A stretch of DNA of 64,000 nt from Candidatus Blautia stercoripullorum (GCA_019120545.1 DWUX01000197.1:16767-80766); one strand, 5' to 3'. Positions 16,354 through 59,738 are shown, counted from the stretch's first letter. Made by a program: numbers and translations. Notes: generated by a model not told the origin, from the letters alone.

Positions 16354-16640
16354 AAAAAAAATCGCCTTCCGACAGATTACTCTGTCAGAAGACGAATAAA
16401 ATTATCTCCGCGTTACCACTTCTGTTACCGGGAAATCCCGGTCTCTTGGCCCCGTCGTTCAGTTTATACTGAATTAACAGGTTTCCTTATATCGGAGGAA
16501 TTCCGGTCCGGGTTACTGTTTCTCATGTTCACCCTGACTGCTCACAGGTGATAGCCGCCCTGACTATGCTGTCTCCTCACACCATCCGGAGACTCTCTGA
16601 AAACATAACTGTCTGGGAAGTCCTGTCCTGTTCTTCGCAT
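16354..16640 (-). promoter_or_regulatory. T-box riboswitch, probable Ile (AUC) specifier, with terminator
   Basis: On the minus strand: stem I with GA motif, AGAGAG bulge and TGGTGTGA distal loop. Specifier ATC-A-CCTGT at 16550-16552. Stem II with GAA/AGTA. Stem III ACCGGGATTTCCCGGT. T-box GAAGTGGTAACGCG at 16409-16422. Terminator hairpin 16363-16394 followed by a U-run. Confidence 0.9.
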
Positions 16641-16662
16641 TGGCTTTTCTCAATTCGGTTTC

Positions 16663-23225: not shown

Positions 23226-23481
23226 TTTGTCTGCCTCCTTTGTTTGAATGTAGATTGCAAATATATTACTTAGTCTTAATCTTAGTTTGTACTAACATGA
23301 TAGAATATAACGAATAAAAATTAAATGTGAAATATAAACAAAAAAATGAAATGAAAATAGTTAAATATATAAAAAACAACTGTGAAATAAACGGAAGAAA
23401 TTGACATTTTGGTATATTCTTGCTAAACTTAATAAAACCGAATGTGTTCGGAAATTACAATTTCATATGGGAGGTGCAGTG

Positions 23482-30219: not shown

Positions 30220-30365
30220 CATTACTCAACATAATAATGAACTGATGCATTAATCAAAAAAGATACAGGGCCGGATTTATCCGGCTCTTTTTCCATTCCA
30301 TTAAAAATTTGCTTTATTCAATAATAATTCCTGCCAAAGATTTGACAGAAATTATTGGGGAAAGA

Positions 30366-30394
30366 TTGACAATACTATAAAACTGTGTTATATA
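30366..30394 (+). promoter_or_regulatory. SigmaA promoter of the heme operon
   Basis: TTGACA-N17-TATATA with an extended TG. Confidence 0.7.
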
Positions 30395-30401
30395 AAAAGA
30401 T

Positions 30402-30477
30402 AGGTAGTTTAAACTAACTTTATGAACAAGAGGGTGGACTACTCTTTTTTTACCTGATGAGTTATACAAAACTAACT
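30402..30477. promoter_or_regulatory. Two candidate DtxR/MntR-family operator sites
   Basis: Near-perfect palindrome AGGTAGTTT-AAACTAACT (30402-30419) and a related AGTTATACA-AAACTAACT (30460-30477), both just downstream of the -10. Confidence 0.55.
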
Positions 30478-30500
30478 AGCTGCAGAAGAAAGGAAGAAAT

Positions 30501-31625
30501 ATGAAAACAGAAAAAATCATGAAGAAGTTTTCTGCCGGTATCCTGCTTGCGCTATTTATAATAGCAGGGATACCGGCTGTTCCGGTGCAGGCGGCTGCTG
30601 GCACGGTATATACCTGCGCCGTACACCCCAGCTACCGCCATCCGGTAACGGGAGAGATCGAGGATTCAGGGGGTGAAGCCTCTTATGCCACAGGCCAGGG
30701 CATGGTTGACGGGGCTGTATATCCTACCGGCATCCTGGAACTGACAGACAGCGGAGAGTACTATCTGACTATCCGGATGAGCCTTATGGACTATACTGCC
30801 AATCACAGCTTCTGGGTACAGAACGTGGGAGATTCCGGCTGGTCCACGCCGGCTCTGGGAGTTACAGGAAGCGGTACAGACAATAACGGAGCCACCAGTG
30901 ATATCTGCATTCAGGTACCAAGTGAGAACTGCGTGATCCGGGCAGCGATGTATGTAGAGCCTATGGGGAGGGATGTGATCTTTTATATCTATCCCAGTGA
31001 TTTTGTGACGGGCAACAATACAGACATGAATGCCACTATTGTAACCGAGGCTTCCGGAAGCAGTACCGGATCCCAAAGCACCGGTGCTGCACAGGATTTG
31101 GGCACTTCCAGCCAGAATACGGATAATTCTGCTTCCGGAAACGGCACCTCTTCTTCAGGCAATGGCAATACAGTGACCCCTTCGGCTTCCAGCCTGCCTT
31201 CAGGAAATACCGGCGCCGGCAGTACATCAGGTGCAGACAGCGGCAGTACAGAGGGGGAGACTGGGAACAGTGAGAGCACGGATAATGAAAATACAGAAGA
31301 TGCCAGCGGAGCCACCGGTGTGCAGGTTCTGGAAAATACCATTGAGGATCCGGCGGATTCCGCCCAGGAAACAGAAACTCCTTCTACAGAGGATACAGAA
31401 CTGGACAGCGCTCAGGGCCTGAGTCTCTCCACAGCCCGGGAGGCCCAGGCAGAAGACCAGGTATCTGAGGCTTCCGGAAGCACTACAGCAGGCAGTCAGA
31501 TCCTGGTGTTGATCATATCCATTACCGTTTCCGGCCTTCTTCTTATAGGAGCTGCAGCTGCAGTGATCTATTATTTCCGGAGAAACTGGAGACGCTGGGG
31601 CGGAGGAGAAGATGATGATGAGTAG
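30501..31625 (+). CDS. shp: Shp-like surface heme-binding protein
   Basis: Signal peptide. YRHPVTGEIEDSGG, GQGMV and YVEPMGRDV closely match streptococcal Shp, including both Met heme ligands. S/G/T/N-rich linker, C-terminal TM and basic tail. Confidence 0.85.
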   Translation: MKTEKIMKKFSAGILLALFIIAGIPAVPVQAAAGTVYTCAVHPSYRHPVTGEIEDSGGEASYATGQGMVDGAVYPTGILELTDSGEYYLTIRMSLMDYTANHSFWVQNVGDSGWSTPALGVTGSGTDNNGATSDICIQVPSENCVIRAAMYVEPMGRDVIFYIYPSDFVTGNNTDMNATIVTEASGSSTGSQSTGAAQDLGTSSQNTDNSASGNGTSSSGNGNTVTPSASSLPSGNTGAGSTSGADSGSTEGETGNSESTDNENTEDASGATGVQVLENTIEDPADSAQETETPSTEDTELDSAQGLSLSTAREAQAEDQVSEASGSTTAGSQILVLIISITVSGLLLIGAAAAVIYYFRRNWRRWGGGEDDDE

Positions 31626-32643
31626 AAACCGATCAGTGAAAAGCAAAAGAAGATTTCTGTCCCTGGGGCTGGCTGCATGGACTCTCTGTGTTCTTCTGGG
31701 AGGCTGCGGCGTAATGAAGGGGCAGAAAGAGGATTCTTCTGCCAGTGTCCAGGAAGTGGACAGCGTAGAAACTCTTCTGGCTATTGATGATCCCGAGGAG
31801 AAGGCGGCTGTGGAAGCTGCAAAGGCTAAAGTGGCTGCTATGGAAGAAGAACCCAGGATCATTGCTACATCACCGGCTACGGCGGATATCTGTGACCGGC
31901 TGGATCTGGATCTGGCGGGAGTATGCAGCAGTACCACCTCTTCTTTACCGGAGCGGTATGAGGACCTGACCCAGGTGGGAACAGCCATGAGCCCTGATAT
32001 GGAGATCATTTCTTCTCTGGATCCGGACTGGATCCTAAGTCCTGTCACTCTCCAGTCTGATCTTCAGCCAAAGTATGAGGCCATTGACACAGACTGGGCT
32101 TTTCTGAATCTTCGCAGCGTACCGGGTATGTACCGTTCCATTCAGGAACTGGGGGAGATTTTCCAAAGAAAAGAGGAGGCTCAGGCTCTGGTTGATGAAT
32201 TCACAGAATTTTACAATGATTATAAAGATCAGAATGAAGGAAAAGAAGCTCCCAAGGTGATGATCCTTATGGGACTTCCCGGTTCTTATATCATTGCCAC
32301 AGAGAATTCTTATGTGGGCAGTCTGGTAGAACTGGCAGGAGGAGAAAACGTATATGCCGGTACAGATCAGGAATTTCTTACAGTAAATACTGAGGATATG
32401 AAGACAAAGGAACCGGATGTGATCCTCCGGGCGGCCCATGCTCTCCCTGACCAGGTAGTGGAAATGTTTAAAGAAGACTTTGAGACAAATGATATATGGC
32501 AGCATTTCCAGGCGGTAGAGGAAGGACGTGTGTATGACCTGACTTATGAATACTTTGGGATGAGCGCGAATTTCAATTATCCTCAGGCCCTGGAGGAACT
32601 TCAGCCTATGCTGTATCCGGAAAATCAGGAAGCAGTACAGTAA
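31612..32643 (+). CDS. isdE: Heme ABC transporter substrate-binding lipoprotein (HtsA/SiaA/IsdE)
   Basis: Lipobox LGGC. AMSPDME (Met ligand) and AAHALP (His ligand) as in IsdE/HtsA. Confidence 0.88.
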   Translation: MMMSRNRSVKSKRRFLSLGLAAWTLCVLLGGCGVMKGQKEDSSASVQEVDSVETLLAIDDPEEKAAVEAAKAKVAAMEEEPRIIATSPATADICDRLDLDLAGVCSSTTSSLPERYEDLTQVGTAMSPDMEIISSLDPDWILSPVTLQSDLQPKYEAIDTDWAFLNLRSVPGMYRSIQELGEIFQRKEEAQALVDEFTEFYNDYKDQNEGKEAPKVMILMGLPGSYIIATENSYVGSLVELAGGENVYAGTDQEFLTVNTEDMKTKEPDVILRAAHALPDQVVEMFKEDFETNDIWQHFQAVEEGRVYDLTYEYFGMSANFNYPQALEELQPMLYPENQEAVQ

Positions 32644-32655
32644 GGAGGGTATGTT

Positions 32656-33720
32656 TTGAAAGACAATAAAGAAATAAAGACAGCCGCCGGCAATATCCCT
32701 TCCGCAGAGGAACAGGATAAAAACAGAAGAAAGAGAAAGACCGCCCGGGCGGCTCTGTCTTTCGGGATCATGGTTCTGCTTTTGGTGATCCTGTTTTTTG
32801 CGGCGGTGAATATCGGAAGCCTGAAAGTGACTTTTCCCCAGCTTTTCAGAGGAATCTTCCTGGAACCTGACGAGACGGTATCTGCCATCTTTGATCTCAG
32901 ATTTCCCAGGATCATGATCTCTATGCTGGCAGGAGCGGCAGTGGCTGTCTCCGGTGTGCTTTTTCAGGCGGTACTGAAGAATCCTCTGGCAGACCCGGGG
33001 ATCATCGGTATTTCCAGCGGGGCCAGCTTTGCGGCAGTGATCATTACAGCAGCGGCGCCCGCCCTGTTTTTCTTCACGCCTCTTTTTGCCTTTCTGGGAG
33101 GAGTCTTGGCTTTTTTCCTGGTGTATACCCTTTCCTGGAAAGGAGGACTGAGTCCTCTTCGGATCATTCTGGTAGGCGTGGCTGTAAACTCTATGTTTAC
33201 CGGTCTGTCTTCAGCTATGAATTCTATGAGCGGCGGGAATATGTCGGGAGTGGCTTCCATTGTCAATGGAAACATTACTATGAAGACCTGGGAGGATGTA
33301 CAGACTCTGGTGCCTTATGTGATCATCGGCCTGATCCTGTCGCTGGTCTTTGCGGGAAAGTGTAATCTTCTGTCTCTGGAAGACAAGACTGCCAGGAGCC
33401 TGGGAGTCAATGTAAATACCATGCGGATCCTGATCTCTCTGGCGGCAGTGCTTCTGGCCAGTATTTCCACTGCGGTAGCTGGAGCAGTAAGCTTTCTGGG
33501 ACTGATCGTTCCCCATATCGGAAGGATCCTGGTGGGCAGCGATCACAAGGCTCTCCTTCCTTTTTCTATGCTTTTCGGGGCTTTTACCTTCCTTCTGGCA
33601 GATACTATCGGAAGAACTGCAGCTTACCCTTACGAGATTTCCGCTTCTGTCATTATGAGCGTTGTAGGCGGTCCTTTCTTTATCATTCTCTTAAGGAGGT
33701 CAAAGAAATATGCAAACTGA
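32656..33720 (+). CDS. Heme ABC transporter permease (FecCD family)
   Basis: LRFPR, QAVLKNPLADPGIIG, LGEDK-like EAA motif and FLGLIVPHIGR. Confidence 0.92.
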   Translation: MKDNKEIKTAAGNIPSAEEQDKNRRKRKTARAALSFGIMVLLLVILFFAAVNIGSLKVTFPQLFRGIFLEPDETVSAIFDLRFPRIMISMLAGAAVAVSGVLFQAVLKNPLADPGIIGISSGASFAAVIITAAAPALFFFTPLFAFLGGVLAFFLVYTLSWKGGLSPLRIILVGVAVNSMFTGLSSAMNSMSGGNMSGVASIVNGNITMKTWEDVQTLVPYVIIGLILSLVFAGKCNLLSLEDKTARSLGVNVNTMRILISLAAVLLASISTAVAGAVSFLGLIVPHIGRILVGSDHKALLPFSMLFGAFTFLLADTIGRTAAYPYEISASVIMSVVGGPFFIILLRRSKKYAN

Positions 33721-34507
33721 AAAAAGCCCGGCAAAAGAAAAACCGGCCATGGAGGTAAGAAATCTATCTTTTTCTTATGGAAAGAACAAAGTCCTTCGGG
33801 ATGTATCTTTTAAGATAAAGGGCGGAGATATCACGACTATCATGGGAGCTAACGGCTGTGGAAAATCCACTTTGTTTTCTCTTATGACCAAGAATCTTTA
33901 TCCCAGAAAAGGAAATATCTTTCTTTCCGGAAAAAATATCCAGAATCTGGGACTGAAAGATTTTGCAAAAAAAGTTTCCATTGTCCATCAGTATAATACT
34001 TCCAGCGATGACATTACAGTGGAACGCCTGGTTTCCTTTGGACGGACCCCTCATATGAAAATGATGCAGGCGAAAAGTCAGGAGGACGAAGAACGGATCC
34101 AATGGGCTATGGAAGTTACTAATGTAGAAAAATACCGGAACCGGGAGATCGCCAGGCTGTCAGGAGGACAGAGGCAGAGGGTGTGGATCGCCATGGCGCT
34201 TGCCCAGAATACCGGGATCCTTTTTCTGGATGAGCCTACCACTTATCTGGATATCCGGTATCAGATCGAGATCCTGGAGCTGATCCGGAGGTTAAATGAA
34301 GAGTATGGCATCACCATTATCATGGTGCTCCATGATATTAACCAGGCTATTCATTTTTCCCATCAGGTCATTGGCCTGAAGGACGGTGCCGTCTCTTTTC
34401 AGGGAGATCCTCAGGAGGTGATCGATCCTGACAGCATCCGGGATCTGTACGGGATCCATCTGGACGTAACAGAAATACAAGGAAAAAAATTTGTGCTTAC
34501 AGTATAG
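33710..34507 (+). CDS. Heme/iron ABC transporter ATP-binding protein
   Basis: [16 protein letters not shown] and LDEPTTYLD. Confidence 0.94.
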
Positions 34508-34517
34508 GAGAAGAAAA

Positions 34518-34910
34518 ATGAGAAAAAATCCGTTGCGTATATTTTGGATCGTCCTGGGCTTTCTCTGCCTGGGGCTGGGAACTGTGGGAGTAGTCCTTCC
34601 CATCCTTCCTACAGTACCTTTTTACATGGCCACGGTGTTCTGCTTTGCAAAAAGCTCCAGAAAGCTTCATGACTGGTTCATTGGGACAAGTCTGTATAAG
34701 AAACATCTGGAGTCTTTTGTAGAAAAGAAGGCCATGACTATGAAAACAAAGCTGACCATTATAGGGACGGTTACTCTGGTAATGGCAGCAGGCTTCATTA
34801 TGATGAGCCGGGTCCCCATAGGGAGGATCTGTCTGGCAGCGGTATGGATATGCCATCTGCTGTATTTCTTCCTTCGGGTAAAAACAGTGAAAGAGGAAGC
34901 ATATGATTAA
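34518..34910 (+). CDS. YbaN/DUF454 family membrane protein
   Basis: [16 protein letters not shown]...[11 protein letters not shown]; ATG 34518. Confidence 0.88.
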
Positions 34911-36657
34911 GACTAGACTGGTGAGACTTCTGTCTCACGCAAAAAAATACATAGTATATAACATTCTCTGGCAGTGGGCAGCTCTTCTGGCGCAGATCCT
35001 GGCGGTGTTTTCCATTGCCGGCTTTCTGGGAACACTGGCAGACAACCGGGGGGATCTTGTTCAGACACTGGGAAGCCTGGCTGCCGGCAGGACGGTGCTG
35101 ATCCTGCTCCTGGCGGCGGCAATAAGGTTTCTCTGTGAAAGAATGGCAGCCAGAGCCTCCTACGGAGCCAGCGTAGACGTAAAAAGGATCCTGCGTAAAA
35201 AAATCTATGAAAAGCTCCTGAAACTGGGAGCCTCTTACAAGGAAAAGACTTCCACTTCAGAAGTGGTCCAGCTGAGTACCGAAGGTGTGGAACAGCTGGA
35301 AGTTTATTTCGGAAAATATCTTCCCCAGCTTTTCTACAGTCTGCTGGCGCCCCTGACACTTTTTGTGATCTTATCTTTTGTAGATCTGAAAGCCAGTCTG
35401 GTGCTGCTGCTCTGCGTGCCACTGATCCCTGTGTCTATTGTAGCGGTGCAGAAATTTGCAAAAAAACTTCTGAGCAGATACTGGGGGATCTATACAGGGC
35501 TGGGAGACAGTTTTCTGGAAAATCTCCAGGGACTGACTACTTTGAAAATTTACCAGGCGGACGAACAAAAAGCAGAGGAGATGGACCGGGAGGCCCAGGA
35601 ATTCAGGCGGATCACCATGAAGGTCCTGACCATGCAGCTGAATTCTACCAGTGTTATGGATATTGTGGCATATGGGGGCGCTGCTGTGGGAATGATAGTG
35701 GCGGTCAGTGAATTTCTGTCAGGAAGCCTGGATTTTTCCGGAACTCTGACCATTATCCTACTGGCCTCTGAATTTTTCATTCCCCTGCGGCTTCTGGGAT
35801 CTTTTTTCCATATTGCAATGAACGGTATGACGGCCAGCGATAAGATCTTCCGGCTTCTGGATCTGGAGGAGCCAAAAGACGGAGAAGAGCCTATGCCCCG
35901 GGAGAACTTCGACATAGAACTTTGGAAAGTAGGATTTTCCTATGAAAAAGACAGGGAGATCCTTAAAGACCTCTATCTTGCCATACCTCAGGGCTCCTTT
36001 GTGTCTCTTGTGGGAGAGTCCGGCTGCGGGAAAAGCACCATTGCCGGTCTGCTCACCGGGAAGCTTGGAAATTATCAGGGCGAGATCCTTATAGGAGGCA
36101 AGGGCCTTTCCAGGATCAGTGAAAAGGAACTGATGGAGCATGTGACCCTTGTCCGGCACAACAGCTATATCTTTAAAGGAACAGTGGAAGAGAACCTGAG
36201 GATGGCAAAGTCCCAGGCTTCAGAAGAAGAAATGAGAAAGGTTCTTTCCAGAGTAAATCTGCTGGGATTTCTGGATACCCAGGAAGGGTTGAAGACCAGG
36301 CTTTCGGAACAGGGAGCCAATCTTTCCGGAGGACAGCGTCAGAGACTGGCTCTGGCCAGAGCCCTTCTCCATGATACTCCTGTATATATTTTTGACGAAG
36401 CTACCTCTAATATCGACGCGGAAAGCGAAGACCTGATCATGGAAGTGATCCGGGAGCTTGCAAGGACCAGGACTGTCCTTCTTATCTCCCACAGACTGTC
36501 TAATGTAGTGGCCTCTGACAGGATCTACCTTCTGGATCAGGGAAAGATCCTGGAACAGGGAACTCATCAGGAGCTGATGGAGCAGCAGGGAGTTTACCGG
36601 AAACTCTATGAAACTCAGAAAAATCTGGAGATGTATGGAAGGGAGGCCGGAGTATGA
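34903..36657 (+). CDS. ABC exporter-type ATP-binding/permease (CydD/SiaD-like)
   Basis: 6-TM domain with [31 protein letters not shown] and DEATS. Confidence 0.88.
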
Positions 36658-38345
36658 CGGGAGAAAGAAAAGAAAGAAGGAGCGGGATACAGATCATGGC
36701 CAGGCTTATAGGCCTTGTACGGCCTCTGCTCCACATTATGACCGGGGCTGTCATTTTAGGAGTCCTGGGATACCTCTGTGCTATTTTTCTGACCATCCTG
36801 GCCGGACAGGGGATCCTGAAAGGCCTGGGTGAAAATACTTTTTCAGAGCATTTTACAGCGGGAAATCTGTTCCTGCTTATGGGAATCCTGGCGGTGCTTC
36901 GGGGGCTTCTCCATTATGCGGAGCAGTACTGCAACCACTTTATTGCCTTTAAGCTTCTGGCCATCATCCGCCATAAAGTATTTGCCGCTCTTAGAAAGCT
37001 TTGTCCGGCAAAGCTGGAGGGAAGAGACAAAGGAAATCTTATTTCCATTATCACCACAGATATTGAACTGCTGGAAGTCTTTTATGCCCATACCATTTCT
37101 CCCATTGTCATTGCCTTTCTGACTTCTCTGGTCATGGTAATGTTTATAGGAAGCTATCATGTTCTTGCCGGTCTGTTTGCCCTGGCCGGCTATGTGGTAG
37201 TGGGAGCTGTGATCCCTTTGTGGAACGGCAAAAGAGGGGGAAGCAGAGGTATGGAATTCCGCACCGGTTTTGGAGAACTGAACAGCTTTGTGCTGGATTC
37301 TCTCAGGGGTCTGGACGAGACCATTCAGTATGGACAGGGGGAGAAAAGGATGGAGGAGATGGAGAAACGGTCGGTCAGCCTGGGAAATCTCCAAAAAAAT
37401 CTCAGCCTTTTAGAAGGCTCTCAGAGATCCTTTACCACTCTGGCGATCCTGGCCTTTTCCTTTGGTATGTTGTTTTTCTGTCTTTATCTGGGACAACAGG
37501 GGAAACTGGATTTTTCAGGGATCCTTACCTGCACCATTGCCATGATGGGGTCTTTCGGTCCGGTAACAGCCCTGTCCAGTCTGTCCAATAATCTGAATCA
37601 GACCCTGGCCAGCGGAGAGCGGGTGCTTTCTATTCTGGAAGAAAAGCCTCTGGTGGAAGAGATACCGATCCAGGCTGGGACTCCGGATCCGGTCTTTACA
37701 GGGGCCCGGGCAGAGCATGTGACCTTTGCCTATGAGGAGGAAGTGATCTTAAAAGATTATTCCCTGGAAATGCCGAAAGGAAAGATCATCGGGATCCATG
37801 GGGCCAGCGGTTCCGGAAAGTCTACTTTTTTAAAGCTTCTCATGCGGTTCTGGGATGTGGACCGGGGAGCTGTGAAGATCTCCGGTAAAGATGTGCGGCA
37901 GACTGCCACGGCACAGCTGCGGGATACGGAATCCTATGTGACCCAGGAGACCCAGCTGTTCCATGATTCTATTGCCAATAATATTGCCATAGGAAAACCG
38001 GGAGCCAGCCGGGAAGAGATCATAGAGGCGGCAAAAAAAGCCTCTCTCCATGATTTTGTCATGACCCTTCCGAAAGGCTACGATACGGAAGTGGGTGAAC
38101 TGGGAGATACTCTTTCGGGAGGAGAAAAGCAGAGGATCGGAGTGGCTAGAGCCTTTCTCCATGACGCTCCCTTCCTCCTTCTGGATGAACCTACCAGCAA
38201 TCTGGATTCCCTCAATGAAGGTATTATCCTGAAATCTCTGAAGGAGTCCTGCCGTCAGAAGACGGTAGTGCTGGTCTCTCACAGAAGATCTACGATGAAT
38301 CTGGCGGATAAAGTCTATACCATGGACAATGGAAGAATCTCATAA
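36654..38345 (+). CDS. ABC exporter-type ATP-binding/permease (CydC/SiaE-like)
   Basis: HYAEQYCNHFIAF and DIELLEVFYAHT. GASGSGKS, LSGGEKQR and DEPTS. Confidence 0.88.
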   Translation: MTGERKERRSGIQIMARLIGLVRPLLHIMTGAVILGVLGYLCAIFLTILAGQGILKGLGENTFSEHFTAGNLFLLMGILAVLRGLLHYAEQYCNHFIAFKLLAIIRHKVFAALRKLCPAKLEGRDKGNLISIITTDIELLEVFYAHTISPIVIAFLTSLVMVMFIGSYHVLAGLFALAGYVVVGAVIPLWNGKRGGSRGMEFRTGFGELNSFVLDSLRGLDETIQYGQGEKRMEEMEKRSVSLGNLQKNLSLLEGSQRSFTTLAILAFSFGMLFFCLYLGQQGKLDFSGILTCTIAMMGSFGPVTALSSLSNNLNQTLASGERVLSILEEKPLVEEIPIQAGTPDPVFTGARAEHVTFAYEEEVILKDYSLEMPKGKIIGIHGASGSGKSTFLKLLMRFWDVDRGAVKISGKDVRQTATAQLRDTESYVTQETQLFHDSIANNIAIGKPGASREEIIEAAKKASLHDFVMTLPKGYDTEVGELGDTLSGGEKQRIGVARAFLHDAPFLLLDEPTSNLDSLNEGIILKSLKESCRQKTVVLVSHRRSTMNLADKVYTMDNGRIS

Positions 38346-38364
38346 AAGGCAGGGGTGAGAAAGT

Positions 38365-38721
38365 ATGGAACTGGGACAGGTGCAGGAAGATTATTTGGAG
38401 GCTATTTACATTCTGAGGGAGAAAAACGGCAGGGTGAAATGTGTCCATATCGCAGAGTATATGGAGCGGTCAAAGCCTACCATCCTGACAGCAATGAAAG
38501 TTTTGGAAGAAAAAGGATACATTATAAATGACCGCCACAGCCTGCTTCTTACGGAAAAAGGCGAGAAGCTGGCAAAACGGGTACATGAACGACATCAGTA
38601 TTTTAAAAAGCTTCTCATGCTGGCCGGAGTAGAAGAAGAAACAGCAGACAAAGAGGCCTGTGTCATGGAACATGTATTAAGTGAGGACAGCTATGAAAAA
38701 CTGAAAAACTATCTGGCGTAA
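38365..38721 (+). CDS. DtxR/MntR family metal-dependent repressor (short form, no FeoA domain)
   Basis: QEDYLEAIY, IAEYMERSKPTI, HERH and ACVMEH; 118 aa. Confidence 0.9.
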   Translation: MELGQVQEDYLEAIYILREKNGRVKCVHIAEYMERSKPTILTAMKVLEEKGYIINDRHSLLLTEKGEKLAKRVHERHQYFKKLLMLAGVEEETADKEACVMEHVLSEDSYEKLKNYLA

Positions 38722-38903
38722 CAGCCGCAGGAGGTATGTTAGTGAGGCTTTTCCACAGTGCGGTCCGGGATGTTTAAGAAATATTAAAAAGAAATAAAAT
38801 TCTTGTATACAGAATTGAGAGCCTTCTTTTTTTGTGCTATGATAAGAATAATGTTTGGCTGAAAAAGCAGAAGTATGGAGAAAGAAAGGTGAAATACAGC
38901 AAC

Positions 38904-41360
38904 ATGAGAAAAAGACAGAAGCCGGAGCCAAAATCTTCCGAAAAAAACATAAAATTTCCGGTAGAACCTGTAAAAGCCGATTACCTTTACGGACTGACAA
39001 AGAAGCAGGTGCAGGAGCGGATGGCAGCAGGCTGGAGTAACGAAGAAGTCGGCAGTGTCAGTTTAAGTACCAAAGATATTGTCAAGAAAAATGTATTTAC
39101 CTATTTCAACCTGATATTCGCAGTCCTGGCAGTGCTGGTGTGCCTGTCAGGTTCCTTCCGGGATCTGACTTTCCTTCCGGTGATCCTGCTGAATACTGTG
39201 GTGGGGATCGTCCAGGAGATCCGGGCGAAAAATGTTCTGGAAAAGATGAATATGCTCAATGCTCCCAAGACCGACGTGGTACGGGAAGGAAAGATCCGTT
39301 CTATAGATTCTACCCATCTGGTCCGGGACGATATCGTCATATTTAATACGGGAAATCAGATCTGCGCGGACGCAGTGGTATGTTCTGGCGAAGTGCGGGT
39401 AAACGAGTCCCTTCTTACAGGAGAATCCGAGGAGATCGTAAAGAAAGAAGGAGATTCTCTTATGTCCGGAAGCTTTATTGTTTCCGGAAAATGTTATGCC
39501 CGTCTGGAAAAAGTGGGGGATGAATCTTATATTTCCAGACTGACCCTGAAGGCGAAAGCCATGAAGGATGAGGAACAGTCTGAGATGATCCGTTCCTTGG
39601 ATAAGCTGGTGAAAACTGTGGGTATTGCTCTGATACCTATAGGGATCATTCTTTTTATACAGAGCTTCTTTATCAGTCATGAGGGGTTCCAGGAAAGCAT
39701 TACCTCCATGGTGGCAGCGGTGATCGGTATGATCCCGGAAGGGCTTTATCTGCTGACAACAGTGGCTCTGGCCCTGAGCAGTGTCCGGCTGGCAATGAAT
39801 AAGGTTCTCCTCCATGATATGAAGAGTATCGAGACCCTTGCCAGAGTCAACGTTCTCTGTGTGGATAAGACCGGGACTATTACGGAAAATGCCATGACGG
39901 TTCAGGATATTGTTCTGCTGGACGAGGAGCAGGATATGGACAATGTAAAGGGGATCCTGTCAGATTTTGTCCAGGCCATGGGAGAGGATAACAGCACTAT
40001 GGCGGCAATGAAGCAGTATTTTACGGAATATAAAGGGGAAAAACCTTTAAAGATCATTTCCTTCTCTTCCGCTAATAAATACAGCGGCGCCGTGTTTGAG
40101 TCTGGAAATTTTGTCCTGGGGGCTCCGGAGTTTGTTCTTGGCAGCGCTTATGAGGCTTATCAGGATATCATAGAAGAATATTCTGCTAAAGGATACCGGG
40201 CTCTGATCTTCGGAACCTATGAGGAAGAGCTTAATGGAAAGAAACTTCAGGGACAGGTGGATCCCTGGGCCCTGATCCTGCTGATGAATCGGATCCGGGA
40301 GGAAGCACCGGCGACTTTTGAATACTTTAACCGCCAGGGCGTGGAGGTGAAGGTGATCTCCGGGGATAATCCCCTTACAGTATCAGAGACTGCCAGACAG
40401 GCAGGGATCGCCGGAGCCCAGCGGTATGTGGATGCCAGGACTTTGAAGACAAAAGAGGAGTTGGAGGAAGCTGCCGTAAATTATACAGTGTTCGGACGAG
40501 TGCTGCCGGAACAGAAGAGGCAGCTGGTACGGGCCCTTCAGAGGAAAGGCAAGACTGTTGCCATGACAGGAGACGGCGTCAATGATGTGCTGGCTTTAAA
40601 AGATGCAGACTGCAGCGTTGCCATGGCTTCAGGAAGCGAGGCTGCCATGCAGGCGGCTCAGGTGGTCCTTCTGGAATCAGATTTTTCCAAGATGCCGGAG
40701 GTAGTGGCAGAAGGAAGAAGAGTGGTAAATAATATCCAGCAGTCTGCCAGTCTGTTCCTGGTAAAGAATATTTTTTCCTTCCTGTTGTCACTGGTATCCA
40801 TTATCTTTGTATTTACCTACCCTCTGGGACCTTCCCAGATTTCTCTGATCAGTATGTTTACTATTGGCATACCGGGATTCTTCCTGTCCCTGCAGCCGAA
40901 TAAAAATGTGATCAAAGGTCATTTTCTTCAGAATGTGCTGCTGAAGGCCCTTCCGGCAGGCCTGACTGACGTACTGGTAGTGGCGGCTCTGGCGATCTTT
41001 TCCCAGACCTTCGGAGTCAGCGGGGCGGATCTGTCCACGGCGTCTACCATGCTGCTGGCGATCGTGGGATTTATGATACTGTTTAAGATCTGCAAGCCAA
41101 TGAACATGCTCCGGGGAGTGATCTGTGTGGGATGTATCATCGGATTCCTGGCAAGCTGTTTCCTGTTCCCGGGATTGTTCGGCATTTCTTCTATGTCAAC
41201 AAAATGCGTTATGCTCTTTGTAGTATTTTCTATTGCCACAGAGCCGATCTTGCGGTATCTCACAAAGTTTAACGAGTTTATCCAGAACATGTACGCAAAC
41301 AGAGAGATGTATAAGAAAAAATTTCTGTCTGTAAAAAATGCTTTGCAGAAGGAAGAGTAG
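38904..41360 (+). CDS. Cation-transporting P-type ATPase (HAD-IC, CtpE-like)
   Basis: ESLLTGES, IPEGL, DKTGT phosphorylation site and TGDGVND. Confidence 0.93.
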   Translation: MRKRQKPEPKSSEKNIKFPVEPVKADYLYGLTKKQVQERMAAGWSNEEVGSVSLSTKDIVKKNVFTYFNLIFAVLAVLVCLSGSFRDLTFLPVILLNTVVGIVQEIRAKNVLEKMNMLNAPKTDVVREGKIRSIDSTHLVRDDIVIFNTGNQICADAVVCSGEVRVNESLLTGESEEIVKKEGDSLMSGSFIVSGKCYARLEKVGDESYISRLTLKAKAMKDEEQSEMIRSLDKLVKTVGIALIPIGIILFIQSFFISHEGFQESITSMVAAVIGMIPEGLYLLTTVALALSSVRLAMNKVLLHDMKSIETLARVNVLCVDKTGTITENAMTVQDIVLLDEEQDMDNVKGILSDFVQAMGEDNSTMAAMKQYFTEYKGEKPLKIISFSSANKYSGAVFESGNFVLGAPEFVLGSAYEAYQDIIEEYSAKGYRALIFGTYEEELNGKKLQGQVDPWALILLMNRIREEAPATFEYFNRQGVEVKVISGDNPLTVSETARQAGIAGAQRYVDARTLKTKEELEEAAVNYTVFGRVLPEQKRQLVRALQRKGKTVAMTGDGVNDVLALKDADCSVAMASGSEAAMQAAQVVLLESDFSKMPEVVAEGRRVVNNIQQSASLFLVKNIFSFLLSLVSIIFVFTYPLGPSQISLISMFTIGIPGFFLSLQPNKNVIKGHFLQNVLLKALPAGLTDVLVVAALAIFSQTFGVSGADLSTASTMLLAIVGFMILFKICKPMNMLRGVICVGCIIGFLASCFLFPGLFGISSMSTKCVMLFVVFSIATEPILRYLTKFNEFIQNMYANREMYKKKFLSVKNALQKEE

Positions 41361-41426
41361 AAAAATTTATACAATATGACAATATATATTGAAAAAACAG
41401 GGATTTTATTATAACATATATATATA

Positions 41427-41529
41427 AAATCCGAGTCCTGTAAAGAGGAAACAGGACCATGCCGAGATGATCTTTCGGCGAGGGTATTGACCGCTTGAAT
41501 CAATGCCTCCCGTGTTTGGAAAGGATTTT
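41427..41529 (+). promoter_or_regulatory. Moco/Tuco RNA motif (molybdenum/tungsten cofactor riboswitch candidate)
   Basis: AAATCCGAG...GCCTCCCGT...TGGAAAGG conserved segments. Closing stem AAATCC/GGATTT with internal hairpins. Lies upstream of aor. Confidence 0.78.
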
Positions 41530-41601
41530 CATGTAACAGCAGTTATGTCCTTTTATTTTCAGGACAGTTGGCTATTTGTGAAATGCAAGGGAGGGTAAGT
41601 T

Positions 41602-51981: not shown

Positions 51982-51988
51982 ATAGAAA

Positions 51989-52097
51989 ATTCTTCAGGGC
52001 AGGGTGCAAGTCCCTACCGGTGGTAAAGCCCACGAGCCGCAAGGCATGATTCGGTGAAACTCCGAAGCCGACAGTATAGTCTGGATGAAAGAAGATT
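51989..52097 (+). promoter_or_regulatory. FMN riboswitch (RFN element)
   Basis: TCAGGGCAGGGTG..AGTCCCTACCGGTGGTAAAGCCCACGAGC...GATTCGGTGAAACTCCGAAGCCGACAGTATAGTCTGGATGAAAGAAG. Confidence 0.97.
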
Positions 52098-52144
52098 TGG
52101 CGTTTGATATTGTATATCTATATCTGTATATACCATGAAAGGTC

Positions 52145-59364: not shown

Positions 59365-59465
59365 TGATCAATACTTTAAAGAGGTCCTGAAAAAAGAAAG
59401 AGCCTCTTGTAATCTGCAGAAAACTGTGATAGAGTACATGTTGACAATATTAATATGATGAAAAT

Positions 59466-59645
59466 CGGCAGAGTGGAAGAGGCTGCGTCAATACACAGCA
59501 GCCTGTTCTGAAAAGGGAACGGGGTGAGAATCCCCGACGGTCCGGCCACTGTAAACCGGGAGTCTGTCTTTAAAGGCCATTGCGCAGAAGCGTGAGAAGG
59601 CAAAGACAGATGAAGATCGGTAAGTCAGGAGACCTGCTTTGCCAG
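59466..59645 (+). promoter_or_regulatory. Cobalamin riboswitch
   Basis: AAAGGGAACGGGGTGAGAATCCCCGACGG, GCCACTGTAA and AAGTCAGGAGACCTG (B12 box), with a closing stem GGCAGAG/CTTTGCC. Confidence 0.93.
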
Positions 59646-59738
59646 ATAAGATGAGGCTTCCGAGTAAAGTGACCATCTGTAAAGATACAGACTGAAAAGG
59701 GGTTATTCCCTTTATGAGATAAATGGATTTTAGACGAA

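Follow-up and report, generated by a model that had tools for sequence, protein, structure and literature searches.

Can a gut commensal acquire heme with a streptococcal-type system that lacks the surface receptor Shr? This question is raised by eight overlapping or tightly packed genes on the + strand at positions 30501–38721 of a stretch of 64,000 nucleotides (nt) from Candidatus Blautia stercoripullorum, in the following called the window. The host assembly is a metagenome-assembled genome (MAG) of 3.18 Mb in 261 contigs. A first-pass annotation had interpreted the operon as a minimal, Shr-less system with Shp as the primary receptor. This interpretation was not upheld, because a Shr-like NEAT receptor operon with two axial methionines (bis-Met) and with the same operator motif was found elsewhere in sister species and in conspecific contigs. 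Instead, the window very probably contains the transporter half of a two-locus Shr/Shp/Hts (sia)-type heme acquisition system, the receptor of which would be encoded elsewhere under the same operator and would have been lost in an assembly gap. The operon thus represents a variant of a known system, and the lack of a receptor is most likely not real.

The gene content and order given by the first-pass annotation (shp, htsA/isdE, permease, ATPase, ybaN, two exporter-type ABC genes, and a DtxR-family regulator) were in full agreement with the Pfam and NCBIfam assignments. The first gene, shp (30501–31625), encodes a signal peptide, a Shp domain at residues 34–180 (PF11545, 200.5 bits versus a cut-off of 26.4), an S/T/G-rich stalk of 149 amino acids (aa), a C-terminal membrane helix, and a basic/acidic tail. 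The domain aligns with the structure of Streptococcus pyogenes Shp (2q7a, E 6.5e-43), and M68 and M155 align with both axial methionines of that protein (M66 and M153). Among 29 diverse Shp homologues M68 is invariant and M155 is conserved to at least 90%. The second gene, isdE/htsA (31612–32643; siaA), which is called as 342 aa in other assemblies, encodes a heme-binding lipoprotein with a Peripla_BP_2 domain (Pfam) and the lipobox LLGGC ending at Cys32. The protein scores far above the cut-off of the IsdE equivalog family TIGR03659 (397.9 versus 298.65 bits) and matches Listeria Lmo2184 (5joq, E 2.3e-76) and Staphylococcus aureus IsdE (2q8p, E 6.5e-61). M126 and H276 align with the Met and His positions of 2q8p and 5joq, which we take to be the heme ligands. 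The earlier statement that both ligand pairs have been retained was therefore correct. The next two genes encode a FecCD-family permease (32656–33720; PF01032, 298.8 bits; siaB/htsB equivalent) and an importer ATPase (33710–34507; ABC_tran; siaC/htsC equivalent). They are followed by the gene for a small membrane protein of the DUF454/YbaN family (34491–34910; PF04304, 125.1 bits), the true start of which may be Met10, yielding a product of 130 aa, the length called in other assemblies. Two ABC half-transporters with ABC_membrane and ABC_tran domains follow, one CydD/SiaD-like (34903–36657) and one CydC/SiaE-like (36654–38345), for which CydD and CydC were the best NCBIfam models, and the last gene of the operon encodes a DtxR/MntR-family regulator of 118 aa (38365–38721).

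The operon was compared with the S. pyogenes reference locus, which comprises shr (HID, NEAT, LRR), shp, siaA, siaB, siaC, siaD, siaE, and, at the end, an ECF module made up of Trep_Strep, CbiQ, and a double ATPase. The two loci are collinear from shp through siaABC to siaDE, and the proteins are reciprocal best matches. The identities are 42–47% for the Shp domain with S. pyogenes Shp, 56–58% for IsdE with SiaA, 51% each for the permease with SiaB and the ATPase with SiaC, 32% for the CydD-like protein with SiaD, and 34% for the CydC-like protein with SiaE. Because of these collinear reciprocal best matches, the term "sia-type" is fair for the transporter part, and the designation as a sia/hts-type operon in a gut Blautia can be retained. 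A bis-Met Shp on a C-terminal membrane helix and the involvement of a DtxR-family regulator are further features shared with S. pyogenes. The DUF454 gene is inserted between the siaC and siaD equivalents and has no counterpart in the S. pyogenes operon (L101). The reported lack of SiaFGH was also found: neither the genome nor any of 80 related loci contained a homologue of SiaF or SiaG, and SiaH matched generic ATPases only. The binding protein additionally links the operon to S. aureus IsdE/IsdF and Listeria Lmo2184 (Hup), since it belongs to the IsdE equivalog family with its Met/His ligands kept. Unlike in S. aureus, a sortase-anchored IsdA/B/C/H relay and an IsdG/I heme oxygenase are absent, and anchoring is via membrane helices and not via LPXTG motifs.

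No Shr/NEAT gene precedes shp, exactly as had been noted at first. Instead, the upstream region contains a gene with a class-A beta-lactamase fold, its intrinsic terminator (30267–30288, + strand; predicted with a 9-bp stem that has 6 GC pairs and is followed by a T-run), which is the upstream operon boundary, and the shp promoter. Ten conspecific contigs likewise have no NEAT gene next to shp. On the other side, the P-type ATPase gene (ATG at 38904) is located outside of the operon, because it has a promoter-like site of its own (38815–38843).

How unusual is the lack of an adjacent receptor gene? Shp-domain relatives were present in 201 species-representative genomes, and the best 80 of them were the basis of the locus comparisons. 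The loci were scanned with an alignment of 17 Shp sequences, as the alignment of 29 sequences was too diverse for this purpose, and Shr-like domains were sought by tblastn with S. pyogenes Shr. Adjacency to shp could be assessed for 77 of the 80 loci and not for 3. In 65 of these 77, a domain similar to Shr NEAT2 (42–49% identical to Shr residues of about 971–1128) is encoded ahead of shp at a distance of 0.4–1 kilobases (kb). The open reading frames upstream of shp in related loci comprise 730–2300 aa, and near full-length Shr-like genes were found at three loci (L013, L020, and L025). An adjacent NEAT gene is missing in the remaining 12 assessable loci, i.e., the window and about 11 other species. 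A locus tree was built on IsdE, permease, and ATPase. On this tree the window clusters with three Blautia loci, which are also devoid of an adjacent NEAT gene (support 100), and their sisters have one. Overall, the lack of an adjacent NEAT gene requires at least five changes on the tree. The adjacency in 65 of 77 loci together with the placement in the tree therefore indicates that the absence next to the window shp is a derived state. The receptor as such is rarely missing: NEAT domains were detected by Pfam in 29 of 30 tested genomes that encode Shp.

In two sister species (G201 and G202) the NEAT match is located on a contig other than that of shp. The respective receptors of 971–1035 aa have a signal sequence and a C-terminal membrane helix, and they contain an FMN_bind domain, two NEAT domains, and a stalk rich in Ser and Gly. 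Residues 749–916, the second NEAT domain, share 77% identity with the NEAT domain that is encoded next to shp in the receptor gene of Blautia hominis. This domain also matches Shr residues 851–1192 (E 7e-43), and the bis-Met NEAT domains of the receptor are 45% identical to Shr NEAT2. The axial methionines of Shr NEAT2 are M997 and M1107 (PMC12796733). Every NEAT domain that was inspected, including those of the conspecific and sister-species receptors, has retained the equivalents of both; none of these domains stems from the host assembly. In contrast to S. pyogenes, where shr adjoins shp, the receptor of the Blautia clade is unlinked and has an N-terminal FMN_bind domain, and Pfam yields only FMN_bind and NEAT, without the HID or LRR regions of S. 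pyogenes Shr. Examples of receptor genes with an N-terminal FMN_bind domain (PF04205) are L126:7026–9956 (conspecific), L088:1310–4417 (− strand), and L089:2449–5364. A database search with the G201 receptor retrieved 73 related proteins (E <= 1e-30), most of which combine FMN_bind and NEAT.

The receptor gene of the relatives is the third gene of a unit, in which the first two genes encode a membrane-anchored protein of 162–179 aa and a secreted protein of 313–351 aa. For the 313-aa protein a structure was predicted with a mean predicted local distance difference test (pLDDT) value of 67, and the NEAT hemophores Hbp2 N2 and IsdX1 were among the best fold matches (target TM-score 0.53–0.60). 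This is suggestive only of a NEAT-like domain. In 17 of the 80 loci, e.g., in Mediterraneibacter, Sellimonas, and Scatomonas, the trio of 162-aa protein, 313-aa protein, and FMN_bind/NEAT receptor immediately precedes shp. In the Blautia clade, where the trio is unlinked, one ancestral cluster has been split into two.

The two halves are connected by their control regions. The putative shp promoter, which was read from the sequence (30366–30394), consists of the −35 box TTGACA (30366–30371), a 17-nt spacer, and a TGn-extended −10 box TATATA (30389–30394). The control region was aligned for the window and the four closest Blautia loci (L002, L003, L004, and L030), and both hexamers turned out to be invariant. 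A putative operator, the 7-4-7 inverted repeat AGGTAGT-TTAA-ACTAACT (30402–30419), begins 8 nt past the −10 hexamer; its half-sites are kept in L002, L003, L004, and L030, and its centre is variable. A degenerate second operator-like repeat, AGTTATA-CAAA-ACTAACT (30460–30477), is located in the leader and is also conserved in the closest Blautia loci. Between the two repeats there is a weak hairpin with a run of seven T (30428–30452). A structured RNA, i.e., a riboswitch or an attenuator, was considered for this leader and rejected, as there was no match in Rfam and the folding was no better than that of shuffled sequences.

The receptor operon of a conspecific contig has a closely similar layout: TTGACA-17-TGCTATAAT is directly followed by GTTAGT-ACTA-ACTAAC, a hairpin with a T-run, and GTTAGC-GTAT-ACTAAC. 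The identical order of promoter, operator, hairpin with T-run, and operator was found at the receptor operons of the sister species, and it matches the layout of the shp leader. The motif GTTAGT-N4-ACTAAC is strongly enriched in the host genome, with 3 exact and 12 one-mismatch sites versus 0 and 0.3 in ten third-order Markov simulations. Of the 80 heme loci (1.36 Mb), 41 contain the motif, with about 70 copies altogether, most of which precede receptor genes or shp. At the level of the operator sequence, a receptor elsewhere thus shares its control with shp, contrary to the Shr-less system that had been proposed. The exact 18-nt operator has no second copy in the host genome, and none of the 12 relaxed-motif sites in the host assembly is next to a gene for a surface receptor. 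The neighbours of the motif sites in the host genome are genes for a heavy-metal P-type ATPase/CutC, an HMA protein, a ferric-reductase-like protein/MatE, enolase-AhpC-AhpF, two TetR-linked transporters (one an ABC exporter), PFL, and a DUF2325 protein. A one-mismatch copy in the window, CTTAGT-TTGT-ACTAAC (23281–23296; C250:40047), is located between a divergent TetR gene and a GPH transporter gene. The scattered copies may constitute a metal or redox regulon, or the half-site may be common to several regulators.

The 118-aa regulator, the gene of which starts 20 nt downstream of the CydC-like gene, is the obvious candidate for the binding of these operators. It contains PF01325 (Fe_dep_repress, 38.1 bits) and PF02742 (Fe_dep_repr_C, 53.5 bits) and has no SH3/FeoA-like third domain. 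The closest solved structures are those of MntR and IdeR, and the protein scores below all NCBIfam equivalog cut-offs. Five of the six MntR ligand positions are kept (D8/E11/H77/E99/E102/H103 correspond to D9/E12/H77/C99/E102/H103). The sixth residue, C99, falls at the position of Cys102 in DtxR/IdeR, and in work on DtxR/MntR selectivity the change from Glu to Cys is reported to favour iron. With a Cys at this position, the metal selectivity of the regulator is uncertain. Like Bacillus subtilis MntR and Corynebacterium DtxR-IdeR, the protein consists of a winged helix and a dimerisation/metal domain. The palindromic consensus of the DtxR iron box presumably contains GTTAG...CTAAC, as does the operator described here, and the half-site spacing of the latter differs from that of the 19-bp iron box. 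A regulator homologue is found at the 3′-end of the operon in 10 of the 80 loci. The S. pyogenes regulator MtsR is a three-domain protein of 215 aa encoded outside of the sia operon, whereas the regulator in the window has two domains and is encoded in the operon. Judged by its domains, it is thus a short MntR-type protein and not an orthologue of MtsR, and the DtxR family assignment of the first-pass annotation can be retained.

Why, then, does the host assembly not contain the receptor? One of its contigs, C56 (11,833 nt), stops within the gene for a BceA-like ATPase, the open reading frame of which is open at the 5′-end. An exact look-up with the 302-aa protein that adjoins the BceB-like permease on C56 led to conspecific contigs; exact look-ups of the permease itself gave no match. 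At least six contigs from six samples match C56 with 98.3–99.65% identity over up to 11.8 kb; the corresponding values for the sister species, outside of the heme operon, are 81–91%. Among the matches listed, six of six contigs continue past the end of C56 with the remainder of the ATPase gene, a histidine kinase gene, a response regulator gene, and the genes for a FMN_bind/NEAT receptor of 976–1009 aa, the 313-aa protein, and the 162-aa protein. Long-read contigs exhibit the same order, followed by GH120 and AraC genes. In the near-identical contigs the receptor operon is located about 2.3 kb from the position of the C56 break. Because C56 breaks inside of the ATPase gene exactly where the near-identical contigs continue into the receptor operon, the missing receptor is most probably due to an assembly or binning gap at C56. 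A dispersed repeat of about 150 nt, the copies of which are 80–97% identical, is present at the ends of many MAG contigs (C159, C80, C213, C100, C231, C201, C64, C233, C61, and C30) and also next to the G201 receptor gene (L088:4440–4600). This repeat is probably the cause of many assembly breaks.

Several observations weigh against the proposed two-locus system and its assembly gap. The genome search for NEAT/Shr proteins, which had been suggested at the outset, was negative for the host itself: no NEAT domain (PF05031), no Shr HID (PF07550), and no Shr-like sequence was found in the 3.18-Mb assembly by any search, and it was positive for kin and for the conspecific contigs that extend past the C56 break. 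At least 12.3 kb beyond the break are absent anywhere in the MAG, and a strain-specific deletion of the receptor module would leave the same picture, although it is improbable. The operator motif also occurs in related loci without a regulator homologue in the locus and at sites in the host genome next to TetR genes, and for this reason the assignment of the 118-aa protein to the operator is only tentative. Furthermore, catalase, ferrochelatase, HemS, a CobN-type chelatase, and the ChuW/HutW equivalog were not found in the host genome, and neither was any other known heme-using or heme-degrading enzyme that would account for the fate of imported heme.

Taken at face value, the first of these observations would mean that the strain truly lacks a NEAT/Shr receptor and that Shp itself is the primary receptor for free or dietary heme. 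The MAG is rated 100% complete and still contains no NEAT, HID, or Shr-like sequence; shp has no adjacent NEAT gene in the window and in the 10 conspecific contigs; the adjacent receptor gene has been lost repeatedly in the family, with at least five changes on the tree; and one related genome (G205) has no NEAT match at all. However, C56 stops within a gene exactly where six of six near-identical contigs listed continue to the receptor operon, and both sister species carry the module. A receptor-less strain is thus unlikely.

The stalk of Shp also bears on this question, as its length had been taken as a sign of a primary-receptor role. The reported length of about 150 aa was correct, and the linker from the domain to the membrane helix comprises 149 aa rich in S/T/G/A. 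However, the median linker length is 121 aa without an adjacent NEAT gene (n=11) versus 119 aa with one (n=55; Mann-Whitney p = 0.34), linkers of up to 148 aa occur among loci with an adjacent NEAT gene, and the linker of S. pyogenes has about 80 aa. The idea that the long stalk compensates for a missing receptor was therefore discarded, and the long stalk is a family trait and not a substitute for the receptor. The Shp proteins of Lachnospiraceae share a short conserved motif, GLSLST (window 31404–31421, Shp residues 302–307), in a stalk that is otherwise of low complexity; the motif is separated from the membrane helix by about 25 residues.

The exporter-type pair scores just below both equivalog cut-offs of CydDC: the CydD-like protein has 408.4 bits with TIGR02857 (cut-off 435), and the CydC-like protein has 298.4 bits with TIGR02868 (cut-off 329.05). 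A sequence search of the PDB with both proteins yielded generic ABCB/MsbA matches only. In the Escherichia coli heme exporter CydDC, which is the same type of heterodimeric ABC pair, the axial heme ligands were identified by cryo-electron microscopy as H85 of CydC and H312, with Y311, of CydD (PMC10374445). The alignment to E. coli K-12 CydDC placed H95 at the position of H85 and F302/H303 at the positions of Y311/H312. In Lachnospiraceae, H303 is invariant in 55 homologues and H95 in 56, and both are also present in SiaD and SiaE. The propionate-binding residues R81 and R136 of CydC are replaced by Q and H. In contrast to E. coli, the host genome lacks the cytochrome bd partner, as subunit I (cydA, PF01654) was not found in this fragmented assembly.

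The combination of conserved histidines and missing cytochrome bd would also fit a main role in protection against heme toxicity, with the SiaDE-like pair and DUF454 as the core and Shp and IsdE as a sink or sensor, and the lack of any heme-consuming pathway in the searches could be viewed in the same way. This role is very unlikely, because a complete type-II importer with 51–58% identity to the characterized HtsABC leads the operon, and surface NEAT receptors together with a DtxR-type repressor are a signature of acquisition. The same missing enzymes, i.e., cydA, catalase, ferrochelatase, the ChuW equivalog, HemS, and the CobN-type chelatase, could alternatively indicate that the substrate is not heme but another tetrapyrrole, e.g., a corrinoid precursor or a different metalloporphyrin, and IsdE does belong to the BtuF-like class of binding proteins. 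Nevertheless, IsdE is above the cut-off of a curated heme-specific equivalog family, the Met/Met and Met/His iron ligands of Shp, IsdE, and the NEAT domains and the His pair of the CydDC-like proteins are kept, no cobalamin riboswitch is present in the leader, though one exists elsewhere in the window, and control is putatively exerted through a DtxR-family regulator and a palindrome that resembles the iron box. A substrate other than heme is thus likewise highly improbable.

For the two-locus heme acquisition system, the following sequence of events is proposed. When the corepressor metal, probably Fe2+ and perhaps Mn2+, is scarce, the repressor, for which the 118-aa protein is the candidate, would leave the GTTAGT-N4-ACTAAC operators just downstream of the −10 boxes at the shp promoter and at the unlinked receptor-operon promoter. 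Heme would then be captured at the surface by the 162-aa membrane-anchored protein, the 313-aa secreted protein, and the bis-Met receptor of about 1000 aa with its FMN_bind and two NEAT domains, and would be transferred to M68/M155 of Shp on its flexible stalk of about 150 aa above the membrane anchor. From Shp it would be passed on to M126/H276 of the IsdE/HtsA lipoprotein and be imported by the FecCD permease and the ATPase. The CydDC-like SiaDE pair and DUF454 would most likely carry heme out of the membrane or back to its other side, which could serve homeostasis, detoxification, or the supply of an unrecognised acceptor. As to the cytoplasmic fate of heme, the host genome contains neither a known final step to protoheme nor a recognised heme client, and the only HemN/HemW-like radical SAM proteins are far below the ChuW/HutW cut-off. 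Salvage of iron from heme by an unrecognised anaerobic route serves as a working guess.

The FMN_bind domain might add a redox step to this scheme. The host genome encodes ApbE, and the FMN_bind-NEAT receptor may be an extracellular flavin-dependent heme reductase-receptor. A literature search retrieved no paper that joins flavinylation, ApbE, NEAT, and heme. We tentatively consider, as a rather doubtful extension, a redox-assisted relay in which an FMN_bind domain flavinylated by ApbE would reduce the heme iron at capture or hand-over and would thereby feed unrecognised anaerobic heme-processing enzymes, with the CydDC-like pair and DUF454 as part of the route.

The heme cassette is not confined to the window. 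All of the best 80 Shp-domain relatives stem from Lachnospiraceae-like gut bacteria, and the nearest named relative is Candidatus Blautia stercorigallinarum from the chicken gut (97% Shp-domain identity). The Shp domain was present in 17 of 200 sampled Lachnospiraceae genera, and the Shp family comprises 589 clusters at 50% identity. Of the 80 loci, 52 contain the complete series isdE-permease-ATPase-DUF454-cydD-cydC, and most of the others are truncated by contig ends; in 64 of the 80, a DUF454 gene separates the ATPase gene from the CydD-like gene. Loci such as those of Blautia hominis KB1, Mediterraneibacter, and Sellimonas catena have the same cassette with 64–97% Shp identity, the same DUF454, the CydDC-like pair, and the operator motif. 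Unlike in those loci, in the clade of the window shp has a promoter and an operator of its own, and the regulator gene is located at the 3′-end. An import of the operon from streptococci was not supported, as streptococcal Shp was seen in only few species of the pyogenic group and on a very long branch, and the diversity in Clostridia is far higher. Fusions of one or more NEAT domains with a Shp domain in a single protein are present in other Clostridia (P0195, P0222, P0208, P0226, and P0229), e.g., a 766-aa protein of Clostridium sp. CAG:122.

Within the genus, the heme operon (window 30346–38716) is 96.3–96.7% identical at the DNA level to that of Blautia stercorigallinarum (L002), and the upstream flanks are only 81–90% identical. 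As the identity of the operon is far above that of its flanks, Blautia species may have exchanged the operon recently. Two loci (L005 and L008) have the same ABC-transporter surroundings upstream, but their operons belong to another branch of the tree. Four operon contigs (L033, L041, L045, and L055) are filed under bins of Bifidobacterium catenulatum, Tidjanibacter, Coriobacteriaceae, and Bacteroidaceae. They adjoin Lachnospiraceae rows on the tree with near-zero branch lengths, and mis-binning is likely. Elsewhere in the window, matches above the Rfam gathering score were obtained for a Moco/tungsten riboswitch (41417–41542) ahead of an aldehyde ferredoxin oxidoreductase gene, an FMN riboswitch (51986–52100), a cobalamin riboswitch (59454–59655), and a T-box leader (16385–16644, − strand).

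A survey of NEAT domains from 2014 mentions commensal clostridia and suggests the uptake of dietary heme (PMC4143258). Our literature search found no paper on the Shp or NEAT systems of Lachnospiraceae, and the product name "heme-binding Shp domain-containing protein" is already in use at the NCBI. The results are also a warning for work on fragmented MAGs, as the receptor that seemed to be missing here was most likely lost in an assembly gap, which could be recognized only with near-identical contigs from other samples. Heme is a major source of iron and cofactor in the gut, and its uptake by abundant Firmicutes commensals has barely been studied. This raises the question what a strict anaerobe without a recognisable heme enzyme does with heme. 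Taken together, the distribution of the cassette indicates that the Shr/Shp/Hts relay of the pathogen type is a common trait of commensals, to which DUF454, FMN_bind-NEAT receptors, and a family-wide operator are conserved commensal additions.

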